Assembly: GCA_000004695.1 (NCBI GenBank)
Contig: CM000153.2
Coordinates: 1,216,001-1,280,000 of the forward strand
Length of the DNA stretch: 64,000 bases
Reading direction: 5' to 3'
DNA from: Dictyostelium discoideum
Lineage: Eukaryota
Positions 49,347 to 62,795 of this stretch are shown here, piece after piece. Position 1 is the first letter of the stretch; every line of letters starts with the position of its first letter. The translations under genes and the position numbers were made by a program. The notes under the pieces are model-generated. The model saw only the letters and a list, made by a program, of their open reading frames with translations, ran no database searches and had not been told where the DNA came from.

Positions 49347-51125
49347 TTACTCAATTAATTTAAATGTGAAACATAATACACCTTTTTCTAATACTACTTC
49401 TGGGTTCTTTGGATGATAATTGTTTGGAATGTTGAGTATGAGTTCAAATGAACCATCACGTCTTTGATTATTTGAAAGGTATAATGATGTTTCTTCACTT
49501 GGGTAGCCACTTTCTGAATTTTTCATGTCAAATTGTAACTTTTTAACACCTTTGACAATTAGATTCCATTTTGTATTTTCATACTTTGTTTCATGGAAAA
49601 TTTCATCCAATACCATTTGAGGAACTTCAATAAGGTAACGTAAATCACTACCAACTTTTACAATATCATAGTTTGGTCTGAATCCATTCCAAAATACCAT
49701 TTGTAAACCAATAAATTCAACTTTGTTATCTATTAATTTAAATTCATTTTCCCTATTACTATCATTTTCTGGATATATTTTGAAAACTGGTATTTGAGAA
49801 ATTGTAGTTTTATGTGGAGTAACTTTTTCATAAATTTCTGTAAGTTCTTTTAAGTGCACTGAAAATTCACCAGATTCTTTGTCAAATAAGATTTTACCAT
49901 TTTCTTTATTGCAATTTTCAATGATTTTATCATCTTTTGTAAATTCGCTAATCTTTAGTTTTGATGGTGATTTACAATATGAAACCATATTATTTTGAAG
50001 TCCACTTAATAAAACTTTATCAAAATCCAATTTGTCATTATATTCTTTATTTGTTGATCTGATTTTTTCAATTGTTAAATCATTGTATTTTTTACCAAAT
50101 TCTGAATTATCATTACATAAAAAGAAATGATAACTATTGTTTACAGATTCTGTAAAAAATAATACAACTTCATCTTTACTTTTGATTGTTTTAAAATCAA
50201 TTTGATGGTGAAAAGTTCCATTAAATGGGTGATCCATATATGTTTTAATTTCAACCAATAGCTCCTCCATTGAATTGATTTTTGGATAGTTATGAACAAT
50301 TATTAATGTTTTGTTTATTTTTTGTTCTGTTCTTAATGATTGAATTTTTGATTGAAGTGCCAAGATAAATCTTTGATCAGTCCATGTGAGTTCATTTAAA
50401 ACATAAACAATGGTATTTGCTAATGAAAATGACATATCACGAATAAACATTTCAGTGGATTCTTTTCTTGCCAATTGTTCCTCTGATCTATTTTCACCAA
50501 CTTTTAATGAAGTATTTGAACCGGCTGTATCAATTGTAATTGTTTCATTATTGTGGCAAATTGAAAGTGATAATCCAATGGTTTGTGATTGAGTTCCACT
50601 TGGTAAATATGAATTATTGTATTTATTGATAAAGAATGTTTTACCAATATTAAAACAACCTAAACATGCAAGAGTTGAGTATTTTTTAAATTCTGCAAAT
50701 AATGAATTAAATGGTTCTAAAGGGTTAAAACCATTTGGTCCATTCATTTTTTCTTTTAATTTTTGAGAAAGAAAAATTAACCATGCTGTTTCTTTTTGTG
50801 AAAAATAATCAACTGCTGGAATATCAATAATTATATCATACTCCTTAATACCATTTTCTGGAATTGTAGTTTTGCCAATGTAACAATTTAATTTCTTTGA
50901 AAGTTCATTATTATGTTTTTCCAATTGTTCAATAATTTTCAAATATTCTTCCTCTTTAACTCTATGATTTTTAATATCATTTTCTAAATTTTTATTTCTT
51001 TTATATACCTTTGCCGATTCTTCCTGGTTTTTTTTTAAAATAACCTCAAGTTCTTTTCCACTAAGTATATAACCAAGTATTGATGGTAAACGAATGTCCT
51101 GAGGAACTAATAAATTTGATGCCAT
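49347..51125 (-). CDS. Paralogue A: P-loop GTPase domain (MMR_HSR1/AIG1-like) fused to a C-terminal alpha-crystallin/HSP20-like domain. 592 aa, single exon.
   Basis: N-terminal coiled coil. G1 motif LACLGCFNIGKTFFINK. G2/G3 motifs LPSGTQSQTIG…ETITIDTAG. A long middle region. The C-terminus reads …RPNYDIVKVGSDLRYLIEVPQMVLDEI…WNLIVKGVKK…RRDGSFELILNIPNNYHPKNPEVVLEKGVLCFTFKL, which follows the HSP20 ACD consensus (dlPG…R..G.F.R.f.LP…A…GVL.i…pK). Confidence 0.7.
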   Translation of the reverse strand: MASNLLVPQDIRLPSILGYILSGKELEVILKKNQEESAKVYKRNKNLENDIKNHRVKEEEYLKIIEQLEKHNNELSKKLNCYIGKTTIPENGIKEYDIIIDIPAVDYFSQKETAWLIFLSQKLKEKMNGPNGFNPLEPFNSLFAEFKKYSTLACLGCFNIGKTFFINKYNNSYLPSGTQSQTIGLSLSICHNNETITIDTAGSNTSLKVGENRSEEQLARKESTEMFIRDMSFSLANTIVYVLNELTWTDQRFILALQSKIQSLRTEQKINKTLIIVHNYPKINSMEELLVEIKTYMDHPFNGTFHHQIDFKTIKSKDEVVLFFTESVNNSYHFFLCNDNSEFGKKYNDLTIEKIRSTNKEYNDKLDFDKVLLSGLQNNMVSYCKSPSKLKISEFTKDDKIIENCNKENGKILFDKESGEFSVHLKELTEIYEKVTPHKTTISQIPVFKIYPENDSNRENEFKLIDNKVEFIGLQMVFWNGFRPNYDIVKVGSDLRYLIEVPQMVLDEIFHETKYENTKWNLIVKGVKKLQFDMKNSESGYPSEETSLYLSNNQRRDGSFELILNIPNNYHPKNPEVVLEKGVLCFTFKLIE

Positions 51126-51680: not shown

Positions 51681-53684
51681 TTATCCTATTTTTTCAAATT
51701 TGAAAGTAATAACGCCTTTATCTAAAGAAACAGCTGGTTTAATAGGTAAATACTCGGTAGGAATTGGTAGTGAGAATTCAAAGAGACCATCACGTCTTTG
51801 ATTTTGAGAAGGACATAATGATGTCAAATTACTTGGATAAACGGTTGTTTGATCATTTGAATCATATCTTAATTTCTTTATTCCTTTTATATTGAGATAC
51901 CATTGGCTACCTAAATGTTTTGTTTCAAATTCGATATCTTCCATTTCTAATTGAGGTACTTCAATGATATATCGTAAATCGGAATTAACTTTAACTATAT
52001 CATGAAATGGTTTGAAACCAGATGAAAAAACCATATTTAAACCAATAATTTCGATTCTATTAGCTATTAACTTAAAATCATTTTCTCTATTACAATCAAT
52101 CTCTGGAGAAATTGTAAATGCTGGTATTTGTTTAATTGAACTTCTATGTGGTGATACCATTTGATGTAACTTACACAATTCCTTTAAATGTTTTGAATAT
52201 TCATCAGTACCAAATGATGTGAACAATGGTTTATATTTTAAACTTGTATTAGCTTCATCAGATTTATTTTCAATATTATCATCCTTTTCATCTTTAATAA
52301 TTGGTTGCAATGGTGATGATGACGATGATGATATTGTTGGTGTTGATACCTCACTACCAGATTTATCATTATCTTGTATAGTATCATCGATGGATGGATG
52401 TAAAAACGATTGAGTTTGAAAAAGACTATCTGCTATTGGTCTTTCTTCAAGCTGTGATTTATTATTACTACTATTATTATTATTAATTTGATTAATAGTT
52501 GGTTCATGTTCAGTAATTTTTAATTTTTTTGGTGATTTACAATATGGTATCATGTTATTTTGAAGTGAAGTTAATAAAACTTTATCTAAATCCAAGTTAT
52601 CATTATAGTTTTTATAAGTTCTAATTTTTTCAATTGTTAATTGATTATATCTTTTACCAAATTCTGAATTATCATTACATAAAAAGAAATGATGGGTTTT
52701 ATTTACAGATTCAACGAAAAATAAAACTATCTCTTCTTTTGATTCTATTTTTTTAATATCAACATGATGATGATGAAAATTACCATTGAATGGAGACTCT
52801 ATATAGGTTTTAATTTCAGATAAAAGTTCTTCTTGTGAATTGACTTTAGGATAATTGTGAACGACTAATAGTTTTTTTATAATATTACTTTCAGATCTTA
52901 ATGATTGAATTTTCGATTGAAGTGCTAAAATAAATCTTTGATCATTCCAAGTTAATTCATTTAAAACGTAAACGATGATACTAGCTAATGAAAATGACAT
53001 ATCACAAATAAACATTTCAGTGGATTCTTTTCTTGCTAAATGCTCTTCGGTTTTATCTTCACAAACTTGTAAAGCAGTATTTGAGCCGGCTGTATCGATA
53101 GTGATGGTTTCGTTAAGACTTGATATTGAGAGTGATAATCCAATGGTTTGTGCTTGAGTTCCACTTGGTAAATAGGTACCATTGTATTTGTTGATAAAGA
53201 ATGTTTTACCTTTATTGAGTACACCTAAACATGCAAGAGTTGAAAACTTTTTATACTCTTTCAATAAGGAATGTAATGGTCTTTTTTTATTGTAGTTTGA
53301 ACTACCCATCTTTTGCTTTAACTGATTTGAAACATAAATTATCCACGATTTACGAGATTGTGATAAATAATCAACAGATGGAATATCAATGATAATATCA
53401 TACTCTCTAATACCATTGGCTGGAATTGAACTATCACCAATATAACAATTCAATTTCTTTGCAAGTTCAATTTTATCTTTATTTAATTTTTCAATCTCTT
53501 TCTTTAGATCTCCAACTTCAACTCTCTTTTTTGTTAATAACCCTTCAAAATTTTTACGTTCATTATCTTGTTTTTTTTTTTTGCTTTCTTTAAGATTTAA
53601 TTTTTCTTTTTTCCTTTTTAAAATTTTTTTAATAATAATGATCAATGTCGTGCATATAATAATGACCAATGTACCAACAAACAT
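51681..53684 (-). CDS. Paralogue B: same GTPase + alpha-crystallin architecture with an N-terminal TM helix. 667 aa, single exon.
   Basis: MFVGTLVIIICTTLIIIIKK (TM), then a coiled coil. G1 motif LACLGVLNKGKTFFINK. G2/G3 motifs LPSGTQAQTIG…ETITIDTAG. ~60% identity to paralogue A across the GTPase and C-terminal domains. A Ser/Asn-rich insert is unique to B. C-terminal ACD: …RRDGLFEFSLPIPTEYLPIKPAVSLDKGVITFKFEKI*. Confidence 0.7.
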   Translation of the reverse strand: MFVGTLVIIICTTLIIIIKKILKRKKEKLNLKESKKKKQDNERKNFEGLLTKKRVEVGDLKKEIEKLNKDKIELAKKLNCYIGDSSIPANGIREYDIIIDIPSVDYLSQSRKSWIIYVSNQLKQKMGSSNYNKKRPLHSLLKEYKKFSTLACLGVLNKGKTFFINKYNGTYLPSGTQAQTIGLSLSISSLNETITIDTAGSNTALQVCEDKTEEHLARKESTEMFICDMSFSLASIIVYVLNELTWNDQRFILALQSKIQSLRSESNIIKKLLVVHNYPKVNSQEELLSEIKTYIESPFNGNFHHHHVDIKKIESKEEIVLFFVESVNKTHHFFLCNDNSEFGKRYNQLTIEKIRTYKNYNDNLDLDKVLLTSLQNNMIPYCKSPKKLKITEHEPTINQINNNNSSNNKSQLEERPIADSLFQTQSFLHPSIDDTIQDNDKSGSEVSTPTISSSSSSPLQPIIKDEKDDNIENKSDEANTSLKYKPLFTSFGTDEYSKHLKELCKLHQMVSPHRSSIKQIPAFTISPEIDCNRENDFKLIANRIEIIGLNMVFSSGFKPFHDIVKVNSDLRYIIEVPQLEMEDIEFETKHLGSQWYLNIKGIKKLRYDSNDQTTVYPSNLTSLCPSQNQRRDGLFEFSLPIPTEYLPIKPAVSLDKGVITFKFEKIG

Positions 53685-54972: not shown

Positions 54973-55674
54973 ATGGACGTTATTAATGATCATTTAACAA
55001 TTGTACTCTGCCATGGATCTTTTACAGGTGCACTTGTATGGCAAAGTGTTATCCCATTCTTAGTTAAAGAAGGTTATAATGTTGTTGCAGTTGATTATCC
55101 AACTAGAGATTTTAATGAAGATGTTGAATACACTAGAAACTTAATTGATCGTCAAGATGGAAATGTATTATTAGTTGGCTATTCATATGGTGGTGCAGTT
55201 GTTACTGAAGCTGGTAAACATGAAAAAGTAGTTGGTATTGTTTATATCGCTGGTTTTGCACTTGATGAAGGTGATAGTTTAGGTAGCATCCTTGGCAGAA
55301 GAGAAGATCAAGGTGCCAATAGCAGAATTCTCGATAGTAAGGGTTTCCTTTGGGTTAAACCAGAAGATTTCAATAAATGTATTTGTCAAGATCTTAGCCA
55401 AGAAGAATCATTAGCAATGTCATTATGCCAAAAACCATTACATCTTTCCATTGTCACCCATACAATGGGTCCAAATCCAGCTTGGAAAAATAAACCAACT
55501 TGGTATCAAATCTCTGATAACGATAGAATGATTCCACAAGAAACTCAAATCGAAATGGTTAATAACATTAAACCAAAGAAAACCATTCATTTAAATTCAA
55601 ACCATGCTTCAATTTCTTCTCATCCAAAAGAAGTTACAGCTTTCATTATTGAAGCTGCTTCAACATTTAAATAA
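54973..55674 (+). CDS. Alpha/beta-hydrolase fold esterase/lipase-like protein (233 aa), single exon.
   Basis: Nucleophile elbow LLVGYSYGGAVV (GxSxG) with upstream HG (LCHGSFTG). There are no low-complexity tracts, and the protein has a compact bacterial-like character. Confidence 0.75.
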   Translation: MDVINDHLTIVLCHGSFTGALVWQSVIPFLVKEGYNVVAVDYPTRDFNEDVEYTRNLIDRQDGNVLLVGYSYGGAVVTEAGKHEKVVGIVYIAGFALDEGDSLGSILGRREDQGANSRILDSKGFLWVKPEDFNKCICQDLSQEESLAMSLCQKPLHLSIVTHTMGPNPAWKNKPTWYQISDNDRMIPQETQIEMVNNIKPKKTIHLNSNHASISSHPKEVTAFIIEAASTFK

Positions 55675-56109
55675 AAAAAAATAATAAAAAATAAAAAAAT
55701 TAATTAAAATAAAATATTTAATATTCACATAAATTTTCTTTTTTTTTATTTTTATTTTTTTTTTGAGATTCTTGTTTTAAGAAAATAAAATAAAATTAAT
55801 CAGTACAATTATAATTATAATTATTTCAATAAATAGAATTCATGTGATATTTTTGGAAAAAAAAAAAAAAACTTAAATATATTGGTTGGGAAAAAAAGAA
55901 AAAAAAAACAGAGCCACTTTGACTGTCATCCCAGTCAATCGCAAATTTCTCACTTTTTTTCCAATTTAAAAATAAATTTTTTTTTTTTTATTTTTTATTT
56001 TTTTTATTTTTTATTTTTTTTTTATTTTTTTATTTTTTATTTTTCAGCGTGTTTGTTAAAGATTAATCTTTTATCGTATTTATATAAAAAAAAACAAATA
56101 ATAAATTAA

Positions 56110-56265
56110 ATGTACGCAGTGAATCCAATTGAATGTATACATTTAAAAGATGAGTATGATACATGCATAAATAAATCAATATTTGATAAAGATTGTATGT
56201 AATTTTTTTTTTTTAATATTTTTTAATTAAAAAACCTTAATAAATAAACTAACACACCAACCAAA

Positions 56266-56299
<34 letters not shown>

Positions 56300-57864
56300 T
56301 TTTTTTTATATTTTTTATATTTTTTTTTTTAATATTAGTAAAAATAACAAAATGTCATGCATGTAATGATGAGAGTGAAAATTGGATATGTATGACATGT
56401 GGTGTTGTATCATGCTCAAGACATGTCAATGGACATGCAGGTGAGCACTTTGAAAATACCAAACATCCAATATCAGCATCATTTTCAGATCACTCATTTT
56501 GGTGTTACACTTGTGATACCTATGTACATAATACTCCATTATTTGATATTTGTGAAATTTTAGAAAATATTAAATCATCAAATAAAAAAGATAAAATTGT
56601 ACCAAAAAAAGACCAAAAAGAAGAAGAAGAAGAAGATCAAGTTGTACCATCAGCCTCAATTACTACATCTTCAACAACAACTTCAATTTCAAAACAAACT
56701 ACTGTAAATAACACAACAACCACATCATCATCATCAACTACAACAACAACAACCACAACATCAACAACTATTAATAATAATGAAGAAGAAGAAGAATCAG
56801 AATCAGAAACAGATGAATCATCATCAGAAGGTGAAGAAAGTTTATCATTAATTCAAAGAATGAGAGAAATGATATTTGGAGTTGGTAGAGGACCAAAAAT
56901 TGTAGCACCATCAGAACAAGAGGAATCAGAAGAGGATGAATCTTGTGTATTAAAGAAACCAACCATTGAAGAGATTGCAAAATATATAAATTCAGCTAAA
57001 TGTAAAAATATCATTGTAATGACTGGTGCTGGTATCAGTGTTGCTGCTGGTATTCCAGATTTTAGATCCCCAAAAACTGGTTTATATGAAAAATTGGATA
57101 AATATGATCTTCCATATAGAGAAGCCATTTTTGATATTGAATATTTTAAAAAGAATCCAAAACCATTTTATGTTTTATCAAAAGAATTATTCCCTGGTTC
57201 ATTTAATGTAAATTGAAATATAATTTATTATTATTTACATATTATATATATATATTTTACTAATATTTTTTTAAAATAGCCAACAACAGTTCATTATTTT
57301 ATTAAATTATTATCAGATAAAGGGTTGTTATTAAGAAATTTCACACAAAATATTGATACATTGGAGAGAATTGCAGGTATACCAGCAAATAAATTGGTTG
57401 AAGCACATGGTTCATTTGCAACTAGTCATTGTGTATCATGTAAGAAAGAGTATAGTACAGAATATGTAAAGGAGAGAATATTCAAAGATGAATTACCAGA
57501 ATGTACAGAGACAAGTGGTTGTAAAGGTATTGTTAAACCTGATATTGTATTCTTTGGTGAATCATTGCCATCAAGATTCAATGATTGTGCACGTGAGGAT
57601 TTCACAAAATGTGATTTACTTTTAGTTATTGGTACTTCCTTAAAGGTACATCCATTTGCTTCATTAATTAATTTTGCAAAAGGTTGTCCAAGAGTTTTAA
57701 TTAATTTCGAAGAAGTTGGTACTAATCCATATGGTGGTTTCAAATTTAATCAACCTTCAAATAAATTAGATGTTAAATGTATTGGTGATTGTCAAACTTT
57801 AGTTTTGGATTTAATAAAATTATTAGGTTGGGAAAATGAATTTAATCAAATAGTTAAAAATTAA
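56110..57864 (+). CDS. sir2A: NAD-dependent deacetylase of the sirtuin family with an N-terminal zf-UBP (BUZ) ubiquitin-binding zinc finger. 3 exons: 56110..56194, 56339..57207, 57280..57864. 512 aa.
   Basis: Exon 1 is [28 protein letters not shown] + T, followed by GTATGT. Acceptor ATATTAG at 56338 (phase 1). Exon 2 holds the zf-UBP core [33 protein letters not shown]…[14 protein letters not shown], an acidic/Thr-rich linker, and the sirtuin Rossmann start [21 protein letters not shown]. Donor GTAAAT at 57208 (phase 0) and acceptor AAAATAG at 57279. Exon 3 reads [13 protein letters not shown]…EAHGSF…CVSC…[23 protein letters not shown]…[18 protein letters not shown]. The 512-aa length matches the reported size of Dictyostelium Sir2A. 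The symbol is tentative. Confidence 0.8.
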
Positions 57865-59552: not shown

Positions 59553-59969
59553 ATGGAAGAAATAACTCAACAATCAACTCATTTTATTGAGTTAAATGAA
59601 AGTAATAATACAATTAAGGAACAACCACCACTACCACCTTCAATAAAATATGAACAACAACAACCACAACAACAACAACAATATAATGATTATAATGATG
59701 AAGATACAGAGTCAGGATCAACATCAGAAGAAATCGATTTATCAGACCAATATACAGATTCAAGTAATTGTCCTGATTGTAGAGCGTTCAATGAAACATG
59801 TAGTTGCAGTAATACAAGTTGTTCGAATAGACATTATACAAATTCAACATCTTCAATATCTGACCTTTTAAATAATAATAACAATAATAATAATAATAGT
59901 AGTAGTAATAATAATAGAACAATAGTTTTAGAATCTAAATTAAATAATAGTTGTAATAATAGTAATGAA

Positions 59970-60038
<69 letters not shown>

Positions 60039-60317
60039 ATTAATATTAGTAATAGTGTTAGTAGTGGTAATTTAACAGCAAGTTATAGTAATAGTAATAT
60101 AAATGGATTAGCACAATCAAGAAGTAGACATGTTTATAGAAATCCAATAACATTGGTAGAGGAATTTACAACCTCCTCTTTATCAGAATTTGGTGAAACT
60201 GAATGTTCATTATCAACTGAAAATATATTTTCAATCATTAAAGATATGGAAGAAACTATATTACCAATTGAAAATATGTTAAAATCTTCACAACGTAATA
60301 ATAATCTTAATCTTAAT

Positions 60318-60370
<53 letters not shown>

Positions 60371-61341
60371 AACAACAACTACAACAACAACTACCACTAC
60401 ACAAGTAGATAATAGTAATAATACCAATTCGAATGATAATAATATTAATAATAATAATAATAATTTAAAGACAAGTAAGGAAATAGAATCAACAACAACG
60501 CCAACTACAACAACACCACCAAGGAAATTATCAATTTCAGCGTCATCTATACCAATTCCACCGCCACCACCTGATGATGCTGTTTCACCAATTGCTTTAT
60601 CTTGTTCTGCTCCTTCTTTTCCTGGCATTTTATCGCAACAAGATAATATTGATAGTTTAGAGAGTACTAACACTACAAACATCACCAACAACAACAACAA
60701 CAACAACAACACCACAACAACAACTACTACACAAAACACAACAGATCCAACCAATACAATTGATCAAAATAAAACAACAGAATCATCCACAACACCCTCA
60801 TCATCATCAAACTCAATTACATCAAAGACTAAAAAACTATTACACTCTTTTAAAAATAAACATCATCATCACAATAAAGGTGAAAAAATGTCAGATTCAC
60901 CGTCAAAGAAAGAAAAACATTCAAAGAAAATTAAAAATTCACCATCAACTGAATTTGTAAATGTACCAAAAGATCAACAAACTCAAACACCTGTAGAAAA
61001 TAATAATAACACCAACACCACCAACAACACCAACACCAATGAAAATAATAATGTAGATAGAACCAACAGTAATAATACTAACAACAATAATACCAATAAT
61101 AATGGCAATAATACCAATAATACAAGCGGAAGTGGAGGCAATGACGATAATAATAACAATAATAATAATAACAATAACAACAACAACAATAATAATAATG
61201 GTAAAGATCAAGATAAAAAAGAAGAAAAAGATAATAAAAAAGAAGAAAAGGAAAATAATATAATAGAAGAGAAATCTATTATTGTACCAAATTTAAATTT
61301 AGAAAATGTATCAACAAATATAATTGTATCAAAACCATTAA

Positions 61342-61373
<32 letters not shown>

Positions 61374-62795
61374 TCTACTACAACCACCACCACCACAACA
61401 ACTTCTTCAATACCACCAACACTTAGTTCCCACTCTTTATCCCAAGTATTTACAAAAGAGGAGGATGAAAACCCACCTGTATTTGTTTCATCTTCATTAC
61501 CAGCATTCCCAATTTCAGAGTTATTGGGTGGTGAATCAAGTAACCCTGATGAAGAAGAATTACCAAGAGGTGGTAGAGGAAGAAGTAATGCCTTCTATAT
61601 GAGAGGCCCACCAGTTCTTGAAAATGGTGATTTTAAGATTCAAACACCAAAAACACCTTCTGTACAAATTCAAACTCAAATCCCAGCTGTTTTACCAAAA
61701 GAATCGAATTCATTAATTTCAAAACCAATTGGTTTATTATCAAAACTAAGAAGACGTCATCATCACCATCATCATCACCATCATCACCATCATAATAAAA
61801 ATAATAATAATAATAGTAACGGTAAAGAATCAACAACAAATAGTAAAGACTCATCATCATCATCGTCCTCATCATCATCATCTTCTTCTTCTTCAACAAC
61901 AACGACAACAACAACCTCAACAACTGCAACACCAACAAAAGAATCATCTAAGAAATCATCAACAACATCAAATATTTTAAGTAAAGTAGTTAAAGGTAAC
62001 TCATCAAGATTTATAGTTGGATTTGCAGATACAATTGGTAGAAGATCTACAATGGAAGATGAATCTGTAATCTATGGTACTTATAGAGGTAAGCATGATG
62101 AAGATTATTTCGCTTTATTTGATGGTCATGGTGGAAATGATGCAGCCAAAGCTGCCTCTGAAGAGTTGCATCGTATATTGGCTGAGAAATTAAAATTAAA
62201 TCATGCAAACCCTGTTAAATGTTTAAAGGAATCATTTTTAGCAACTCATACACTAATTGGTGAACGTGGTATTAGATGTGGTACCACTGCAGTGGTAGCA
62301 TTATTTATTGGAAAGAAAGGATATATAGCAAACGTGGGTGATAGTCGTGCAGTACTTTGCAGGGATGGTATAGCGGTACGTGTTTCATTGGATCACAAAC
62401 CAAATCTACCAAAGGAGGAGGAGAGAATTAGGGCACTCGGTGGTAACGTTGTAACAACAACTAGTTCTGCCGGTGTTGTCACCTCGCGTGTCAATGGTCA
62501 ATTAGCAGTCTCAAGAGCATTGGGTGATTCTTTCCTTAATCCGTTTGTCACCTCTGAACCCGATATTCATGGTCCAATAAACTTGGAAACTCATATCAAA
62601 AATCAATTTATGATCATAGCTTGCGATGGTATTTGGGATGTTATCTCTGATGAAGAGGCTGTTAGTATTGCCGCTCCAATTGCTGATCCTGAAAAAGCAT
62701 GTATAAAATTAAGAGATCAAGCTTTCAGTAGGGGTAGTACTGATAACATTTCTGTAATTGTAATTAGATTTCCACCATTTTTAGAAGGTATTTAA
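59553..62795 (+). CDS. PP2C-family (PPM) Ser/Thr protein phosphatase with a ~800-aa low-complexity N-terminal region (1080 aa), single exon.
   Basis: The C-terminal catalytic domain carries PPM motifs: ESVIYGTY…DYFALFDGHGG, RCGTTAVVALF, YIANVGDSRAVL, GQLAVSRALGD, ACDGIWDV, GSTDNISVIVIRF. The N-terminal region has polyN/T/S/H tracts and a Cys-rich stretch (SSNCPDCRAFNETCSCSNTSCSN). Confidence 0.85.

Follow-up and report, generated by a model that had tools for sequence, protein, structure and literature searches.

The window analyzed here is a stretch of 64,000 nucleotides from Dictyostelium discoideum (contig CM000153.2 of assembly GCA_000004695.1, positions 1,216,001 to 1,280,000 of the forward strand), and all coordinates below are counted from its first letter. 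At positions 56110-57864 of the forward strand lies the annotated gene sir2A (DDB_G0283917; UniProt Q54QE6), which encodes a sirtuin with an N-terminal zf-UBP zinc finger. By homology the finger is of the HDAC6 type, with a predicted pocket for the ubiquitin tail, and we consider it probable that Sir2A as a whole works as an HDAC6-type, ubiquitin-tail-binding finger tethered to a SIRT2-type deacetylase. The foundations of this proposal, namely the exon structure and splicing of the gene, its identity and the family assignment of both domains, are virtually certain. As a discovery the locus has small value, since the sir2A gene, its exon structure and its domain pair are already in public databases, where zf-UBP and SIR2 stand together in the domain annotation of the Sir2A protein cluster, and the sirtuin plus UBP-finger architecture is not new, having been published in 2011 for Thd14 of Tetrahymena. 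If the proposal is true, a SIRT2-type enzyme may do in amoebae and other protists the job that HDAC6 does in animals, sensing free ubiquitin tails and deacetylating nearby proteins. Dictyostelium would then offer a genetically tractable organism for a well-defined ubiquitin-tail hypothesis.

The finger is encoded by two exons. Exon 1 (56110..56194) encodes amino acids (aa) 1-28 and the first base of the Leu29 codon, and splicing and conservation identify its residues A3, V4, P6, C9, H11 and L12 as the N-terminal zinc-ligand segment of the ZnF-UBP domain. Exon 2 (56339..57207) encodes aa 29-318, comprising the remainder of the finger, a disordered linker and the start of the sirtuin domain. A Pfam profile search places zf-UBP (PF02148) at aa 34-94 (56353..56535); the score of 70.4 bits (E 1.5e-19) exceeds the curated cut-off of 22.7, and chance cannot account for it. 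This match falls wholly within exon 2 and leaves the exon-1 sequence C9-x-H11-L12 outside the Pfam model; the C-x-H-L is nonetheless part of the structural finger domain.

For the finger, conservation was counted over 23 homologues that likewise carry it at the N-terminus. The exon-1 segment follows the motif A-V-x-P-x(2,3)-C-(P)-H-L, in which C9 and H11 are present in all 23 homologues, P6 in 22 and V4 in 20. Twelve candidate zinc ligands are present in Sir2A (C9, H11, C34, C37, C46, C49, C54, H61, H65, H71, C84 and C87); 11 of them are invariant, and the remaining one, H61, is found in 22/23. These ligands would form three zinc sites, C9/H11 with C84/C87, C34/C37 with C54/H61, and C46/C49 with H65/H71, where the assignment of C9/H11 to the site of C84/C87 is our assumption, modeled on the HDAC6 structure. 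The residues of the putative ubiquitin pocket are equally constrained, with W44 and W83 in 23/23 homologues and R56, Y85 and Y90 in 22/23.

Sequence comparison with solved structures points to HDAC6. The closest solved fingers are those of HDAC6 (ZnF-UBP entries 5b8d and 3c5k, E 3e-19), ahead of USP49 (4e-11) and USP16 (9e-6), with USP33 and USP20 also behind. A profile built from 18 sirtuin-linked fingers lifts the HDAC6 match to 5e-30, and the N-terminal segment of the same profile can be aligned, from position 6-9, with the solved fingers of USP49, USP33 and USP20 at their own N-termini. Between aa 33 and 105, Sir2A aligns with HDAC6 without gaps at a numbering offset of +1099. Ten ligands (C34, C37, C46, C49, C54, H61, H65, H71, C84 and C87) thereby align with HDAC6 zinc ligands. 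All five pocket residues have identical counterparts as well, namely W44 = W1143, R56 = R1155, W83 = W1182, Y85 = Y1184 and Y90 = Y1189. More specifically, the Arg56 codon (AGA, 56419..56421) corresponds to R1155, which serves HDAC6 as a gatekeeper at the pocket for the Gly-Gly of ubiquitin, and the Tyr85 codon (TAC, 56506..56508), adjacent to W83 and C84, corresponds to Y1184. An HDAC6 protein carrying the R1155A/Y1184A double mutation is folded and has lost ubiquitin binding (PMC3268394).

Structural modeling agrees with the alignment. Because a Foldseek search with the full-length model returned SIRT2 chains only and gave no information on the finger, aa 1-108 were modeled separately with AlphaFold (mean predicted local distance difference test score, pLDDT, 83.8; predicted template modeling score, pTM, 0.78). 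In Foldseek this model superposes on crystals of the HDAC6 ZnF-UBP domain with template modeling (TM) scores of 0.77-0.86 and a root mean square deviation of 2.3 A over 104-109 columns, the targets being 99-108 residues long. The superposed structures include the ubiquitin complex 3PHD and the RLRGG peptide complex 3GV4. Because the model superposes on almost all of the HDAC6 domain, the exon-1 segment is predicted to be integral to the finger fold. Taken together, residues ~5-111 are assigned by homology to an HDAC6-type ZnF-UBP domain with an intact predicted ubiquitin-tail pocket that appears to be under purifying selection.

The second half of the protein is a sirtuin. Pfam places SIR2 (PF02146) at aa 258-443 with 210 bits (E 2.4e-62), and in the full-length model aa 230-512 are confident. 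The first part of the catalytic domain, delimited by Pfam, alignments and the model, is encoded at 56941..57207 (aa 230-318, with the GAGIS NAD-binding motif at G258-S262; NAD, nicotinamide adenine dinucleotide), and the rest lies in exon 3 (57280..57864, aa 319-512 and the stop codon). G258-A-G-x-S262, T340-Q-N-I-D344, H361-G362 with the catalytic H361 (codon at 57406-57408) and the structural zinc tetrad C369, C372, C393 and C399 are all invariant in 26 homologues. The catalytic domain is most similar to SIRT2 (E 1e-100), then to SIRT3 (2e-83), Hst2 (9e-66) and SIRT1 (3e-64), and on this similarity ranking Sir2A is a class Ib sirtuin. To human SIRT2 it shows 54-56% identity and TM scores of 0.85-0.91. 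Residues 230-512 are thus a SIRT2-type class Ib domain, predicted to be active as an NAD+-dependent deacetylase/deacylase.

Finger and sirtuin are separated by a linker of ~118 residues (aa 112-229, 56587..56940) that is acidic, Ser/Thr-rich and of low complexity, and that is disordered in the full-length model (pLDDT <50). Its DNA contains an ACA/GAA codon-repeat tract with tandem repeats at 56713-56768 and 56790-56829, made up of ACA (Thr) and GAA/TCA codons. Sir2A variants from other D. discoideum isolates range from 510 to 522 aa, and every length difference falls inside the linker.

These results bear on a preliminary description of the locus, which had been made from the letters alone and had named both a zf-UBP finger and a SIR2 domain; both calls are made independently by the Pfam profiles. 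The same description took the exon-1 C.HL as the start of the finger, a proposal borne out by the presence of C9 and H11 in every homologue and by the fit of the aa 1-108 model to the HDAC6 domain. Its label of a 'class-I-like' sirtuin was right and is narrowed here to SIRT2-like class Ib by the similarity ranking.

We propose the following working for Sir2A. The pocket formed by W44, R56, W83, Y85 and Y90 would be of the kind that buries the free Gly-Gly of unanchored ubiquitin in HDAC6 and USP5. With this pocket the finger would dock on the free C-termini of unanchored ubiquitin or ubiquitin chains, as might be present on protein aggregates after trimming by deubiquitinases. Docking could concentrate the deacetylase, tethered by aa 112-229, at free ubiquitin ends, or could gate its activity, and would thereby couple SIRT2-type deacetylation to ubiquitin-dependent quality control and autophagy. 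Sir2A would then do the work of HDAC6 with a deacetylase of another fold. The steps differ in strength. Binding of the finger to the free C-terminal Gly-Gly of unanchored ubiquitin is likely, on the grounds that the pocket is intact by homology and under purifying selection. That the finger places or gates the tethered deacetylase in aggregate handling or autophagy is a more tentative suggestion, which we consider less likely than not.

Several points weigh against this proposal. The second gatekeeper of HDAC6, Y1156, is replaced by His57 in Sir2A, a position that holds H, Y or F in the homologues, with one N and one D. The spacing between the C-x-H and the first CxxC is five residues longer than in HDAC6. 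For several ZnF-UBP domains, the one in USP33 among them, ubiquitin binding is not known. We found no binding or activity results for Sir2A in the literature searched, and the link to autophagy is a single title cited in PMC8758696. Finally, a nuclear role on histones is equally possible because Thd14 acts on nuclear chromatin in Tetrahymena.

Two alternative explanations of the protein were considered. The finger could have the ZnF-UBP fold and yet bind no ubiquitin, serving instead as a zinc-stabilized module for protein-protein interaction or localization, as has been proposed for some USP fingers; Sir2A would then be a deacetylase of the SIRT2 type whose targeting domain has nothing to do with ubiquitin. 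The histidine in place of the tyrosine gatekeeper fits such a finger, as does the lack of binding results for sirtuin-linked fingers in either PMC6475656 or PMC3191509, and related fingers are found on very different enzymes, which argues for a portable module. A finger without ubiquitin binding would, however, leave the strong conservation of the pocket unaccounted for, R56 and Y85 being kept in all but one homologue and W44 and W83 in every one, and the closest relatives are the ubiquitin-binding HDAC6 fingers rather than those of the USP33/USP20 type. We regard this explanation as unlikely.

Somewhat less probable still is that Sir2A, like Thd14, chiefly deacetylates chromatin in the nucleus, in which case its finger would read ubiquitin-related signals there or recruit deubiquitinase complexes instead of serving cytoplasmic aggregate or autophagy pathways. 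Thd14, with the same architecture, deacetylates histone peptides and localizes to nuclei (PMC3191509), and Flag-tagged Sir2A, which is of the predicted size, is distributed across the whole cell, nucleus included (PMC6475656). Against this, the pocket would require a free ubiquitin C-terminus, and histone-conjugated ubiquitin offers none. The catalytic domain is moreover closest to SIRT2, which in animals is mainly cytoplasmic. The null phenotype, as far as a title cited in PMC8758696 conveys it, concerns autophagy and proliferation: deletion of Sir2A impairs proliferation and inhibits autophagy. Over-expression of Sir2A leads to a mild developmental delay (PMC6475656). Discussion of the Sir2A finger was not found in the Dictyostelium literature accessible in full text. 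A literature search for sirtuin or SIR2 with zf-UBP gave nothing relevant, one for sirtuin with ZnF-UBP gave HDAC6 and USP reviews only, and a review of sirtuin evolution (Gold & Sinclair, 2022) makes no mention of UBP, ubiquitin or Dictyostelium.

The combination of finger and sirtuin extends well beyond D. discoideum. Every dictyostelid orthologue returned carries both zf-UBP and SIR2 (D. citrinum, D. dimigraforme, D. firmibasis, Polysphondylium violaceum, Tieghemostelium, Heterostelium and Acytostelium), as do sequences from the amoebozoans Planoprotostelium and Pelomyxa and many eukaryotic sequences from metagenomes and transcriptomes. Judged from these sequences, the architecture is widespread across Amoebozoa. 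Three proteins (P0034, P0040 and P0026) have one or two fingers C-terminal to a SIRT2-like domain.

To describe the wider family of the finger, its exon-2 part was compared with 1.84 billion representative proteins in an exhaustive phmmer search (E <=0.001), which yielded 2,367 finger relatives. Among the best 150 of the 2,367, many of them short fragments, 30 have a SIR2 domain, and other partners are HDAC domains, an ADP-ribosylglycohydrolase, a PARG and a DRMBL domain. Two divergent finger-SIR2 proteins (P0142 and P0128) are SIRT6/7-like, these two having been compared with solved structures. From the variety of its partner domains, we view the finger as a mobile module that has repeatedly been joined to deacylases and ADP-ribose enzymes.

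As a side observation, such fusions of HDAC6-type fingers occur in protists, sometimes with two to four finger copies (P0215, P0234 from Cavostelium apophysatum, P0255, P0142 and P0128). The partners in this set are SIRT6/7-like sirtuins, a DRMBL nuclease, PARG and an ADP-ribosylglycohydrolase, and finger partners are repeatedly NAD- or ADP-ribose-related enzymes. The fusions with ADP-ribosylglycohydrolase, PARG and SIRT6-type domains might suggest a speculative idea, namely that fingers of the HDAC6 type connect NAD+/ADP-ribose chemistry with the free C-terminus of ubiquitin. Sir2A and the other fusion proteins would then have ubiquitin as their target, not just as their recruiter, and could for instance write, read or erase a modification at Gly76 or close to it. 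We give this idea very little credence.

The structure of the gene underlying these domains is established by transcript evidence. Joining of the three forward-strand exons gives a coding sequence (CDS) of 1539 nt, which translates into 512 aa. Exon 1 is 85 nt long, that is 28 codons plus one base, and ends in a phase-1 donor (GAT T/GTATGT, the slash marking the junction). Intron 1 (56195..56338, 144 nt, phase 1, GTATGT...TTAG) has a GC content of 9.7% and a long T run, and is followed by the exon 2 acceptor TTAG/TA. Intron 2 (57208..57279, 72 nt, phase 0, GTAAAT...ATAG) lies between the donor AAT/GTAAAT and the exon 3 acceptor ATAG/CC. Both introns have GT..AG ends. GC content is 25-30% in the exons and 7-10% in the introns, compared to 21% for the window, which is extremely AT-rich; the region resembles a Dictyostelium gene. 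An in-frame TAA (56107-56109) stands immediately 5' of the ATG.

The Logan contig SRR24091722_15144 (L002, 1588 nt), assembled from publicly available sequencing data, is a spliced sir2A transcript in which both predicted junctions are exact to the base: its positions 1-138 correspond to 56057-56194, 139-1007 to 56339-57207, and 1008-1564 to 57280-57836. Its first 53 positions, a 100% match to 56057..56109, give the 5' untranslated region a length of at least 53 nt. Beyond position 1564 the contig is Illumina adapter (AGATCGGAAGAGCACACGTC). This adapter has been translated into a false C-terminus, '...EKIGRAHV', of the database protein P0005 (510 aa). In a published experiment the whole sir2A CDS was amplified from cDNA, with a reverse primer that spans the stop codon and a forward primer (atgtacgcagtgaatccaattg) that equals window positions 56110-56131 and thus sits on the exon-1 ATG (PMC6475656).

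The orthologue of Tieghemostelium lacteum (P0011, locus L001) has an intron of identical phase in the corresponding Leu codon, with junctions GAT T/GTAAGC...CAG/TG compared to GAT T/GTATGT...TAG/TA in D. discoideum. The second T. lacteum intron (L001 3382-3444) lies inside the finger, after residue 97. Intron 2 of D. discoideum has no counterpart in T. lacteum, which leaves intron 1 as the only one common to both genes. In Heterostelium album, protein P0012 has a 23-residue insert exactly at the intron 1 position (alignment A1, columns ~101-126), which is probably an unspliced intron in the annotated gene model.

The joining of exon 1 to exon 2 is thus carried by four independent lines of evidence: the transcript contig, the cDNA amplicon, the T. 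lacteum intron and the conservation of the exon-1 residues. The idea that exon 1 is a gene-model artefact lying outside the gene, with translation beginning downstream, for example at Met47, takes its appeal from the longest uninterrupted open reading frame (ORF), which begins at ATG 56392, and from the Pfam zf-UBP model, which covers nothing in exon 1, but it is ruled out for all practical purposes by a contig that joins 56194 to 56339 exactly, an amplicon from the exon-1 ATG that gave a protein of the predicted size, exon-1 residues conserved across Amoebozoa and an intron kept in position and phase in T. lacteum, and it would remove five of the twelve zinc ligands (C9, H11, C34, C37 and C46).

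Accordingly, the preliminary description was right about the coordinates of the gene, the number of its exons, the 28 codons of the first one and the product length of 512 aa, as confirmed by exon joining and by the transcript contig. The splice from exon 1 to exon 2 that it predicted is seen directly in the contig and is matched by the published cDNA primer on the exon-1 ATG. Where it had noted agreement in size with Dictyostelium Sir2A, exact look-up shows that the product equals D. discoideum Sir2A residue for residue (UniRef100_Q54QE6, XP_638798.1 and EAL65446.1), identical over all 512 residues.

Several genes surround sir2A in the window. Downstream, at 59553-62795 (+), lies a PP2C phosphatase with ~800 low-complexity N-terminal residues containing runs of Asn, Thr and His. 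A PP2C gene is also found downstream of the sir2A orthologue in T. lacteum (L001 6432-7766), and on this basis gene order is conserved between the two species. Upstream is an intronless gene for a 233-aa alpha/beta hydrolase at 54973-55674 (+) (Abhydrolase_6, E 1.5e-20). Further upstream, at 49347-51125 (-) and 51681-53684 (-), two paralogous ORFs (592 and 667 aa) with long similar stretches lie in tandem; a Pfam search gave no match for either.

Finally, we compare Sir2A with systems already described. With annotated D. discoideum Sir2A there is no difference; it is the same gene, and the published cDNA primers fit both ends of the CDS. Human SIRT2 and Sir2A have their catalytic His in common, as well as NAD motifs and zinc cysteines; the second Cys pair is C-x5-C in Sir2A and C-x2-C in SIRT2. 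Animal SIRT2 proteins among the matches listed carry SIR2 only and no zf-UBP, whereas Sir2A has both, which fits the remark in the preliminary description that in animals zf-UBP is coupled to deacetylation in HDAC6 and not in sirtuins.

On the side of the finger, the ZnF-UBP domain of USP5/IsoT belongs to the same fold family (Foldseek E ~1e-3, TM ~0.7) but its sequence is far less similar (E 5e-4 despite the use of the profile), and it is attached to a deubiquitinase. USP5 binds the ubiquitin C-terminus in the same mode as HDAC6 (PMC3268394). The ZnF-UBP domain of human HDAC6 (PDB 3C5K, 3GV4 and 3PHD) is the closest solved finger, sharing the zinc ligands and the five pocket residues at a TM score of ~0.8. 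The HDAC6 finger follows two Zn-dependent deacetylase domains of class IIb, whereas that of Sir2A precedes an NAD-dependent sirtuin. Membership of Sir2A in the HDAC6 family was considered and rejected, as Pfam finds no match to Hist_deacetyl (PF00850). Sir2A may nevertheless work in an HDAC6-like manner from outside that family.

A known system of the same architecture is Thd14 of Tetrahymena thermophila (Slade et al., 2011), in which an HDAC6-like finger likewise precedes a sirtuin domain of class Ib. Its N-terminal UBP-type (PAZ) finger is most similar to that of HDAC6, and the authors noted its conserved Cys/His ligands and proposed ubiquitin binding; the protein has in vitro histone deacetylase activity on histone peptides, is nuclear and is linked to conjugation (PMC3191509). 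Thd14 is 471 aa long with 11 of the 12 ligands, compared to 512 aa and all 12 in Sir2A, and Sir2A, in contrast to Thd14, places a low-complexity linker of ~118 residues between its finger and its sirtuin.

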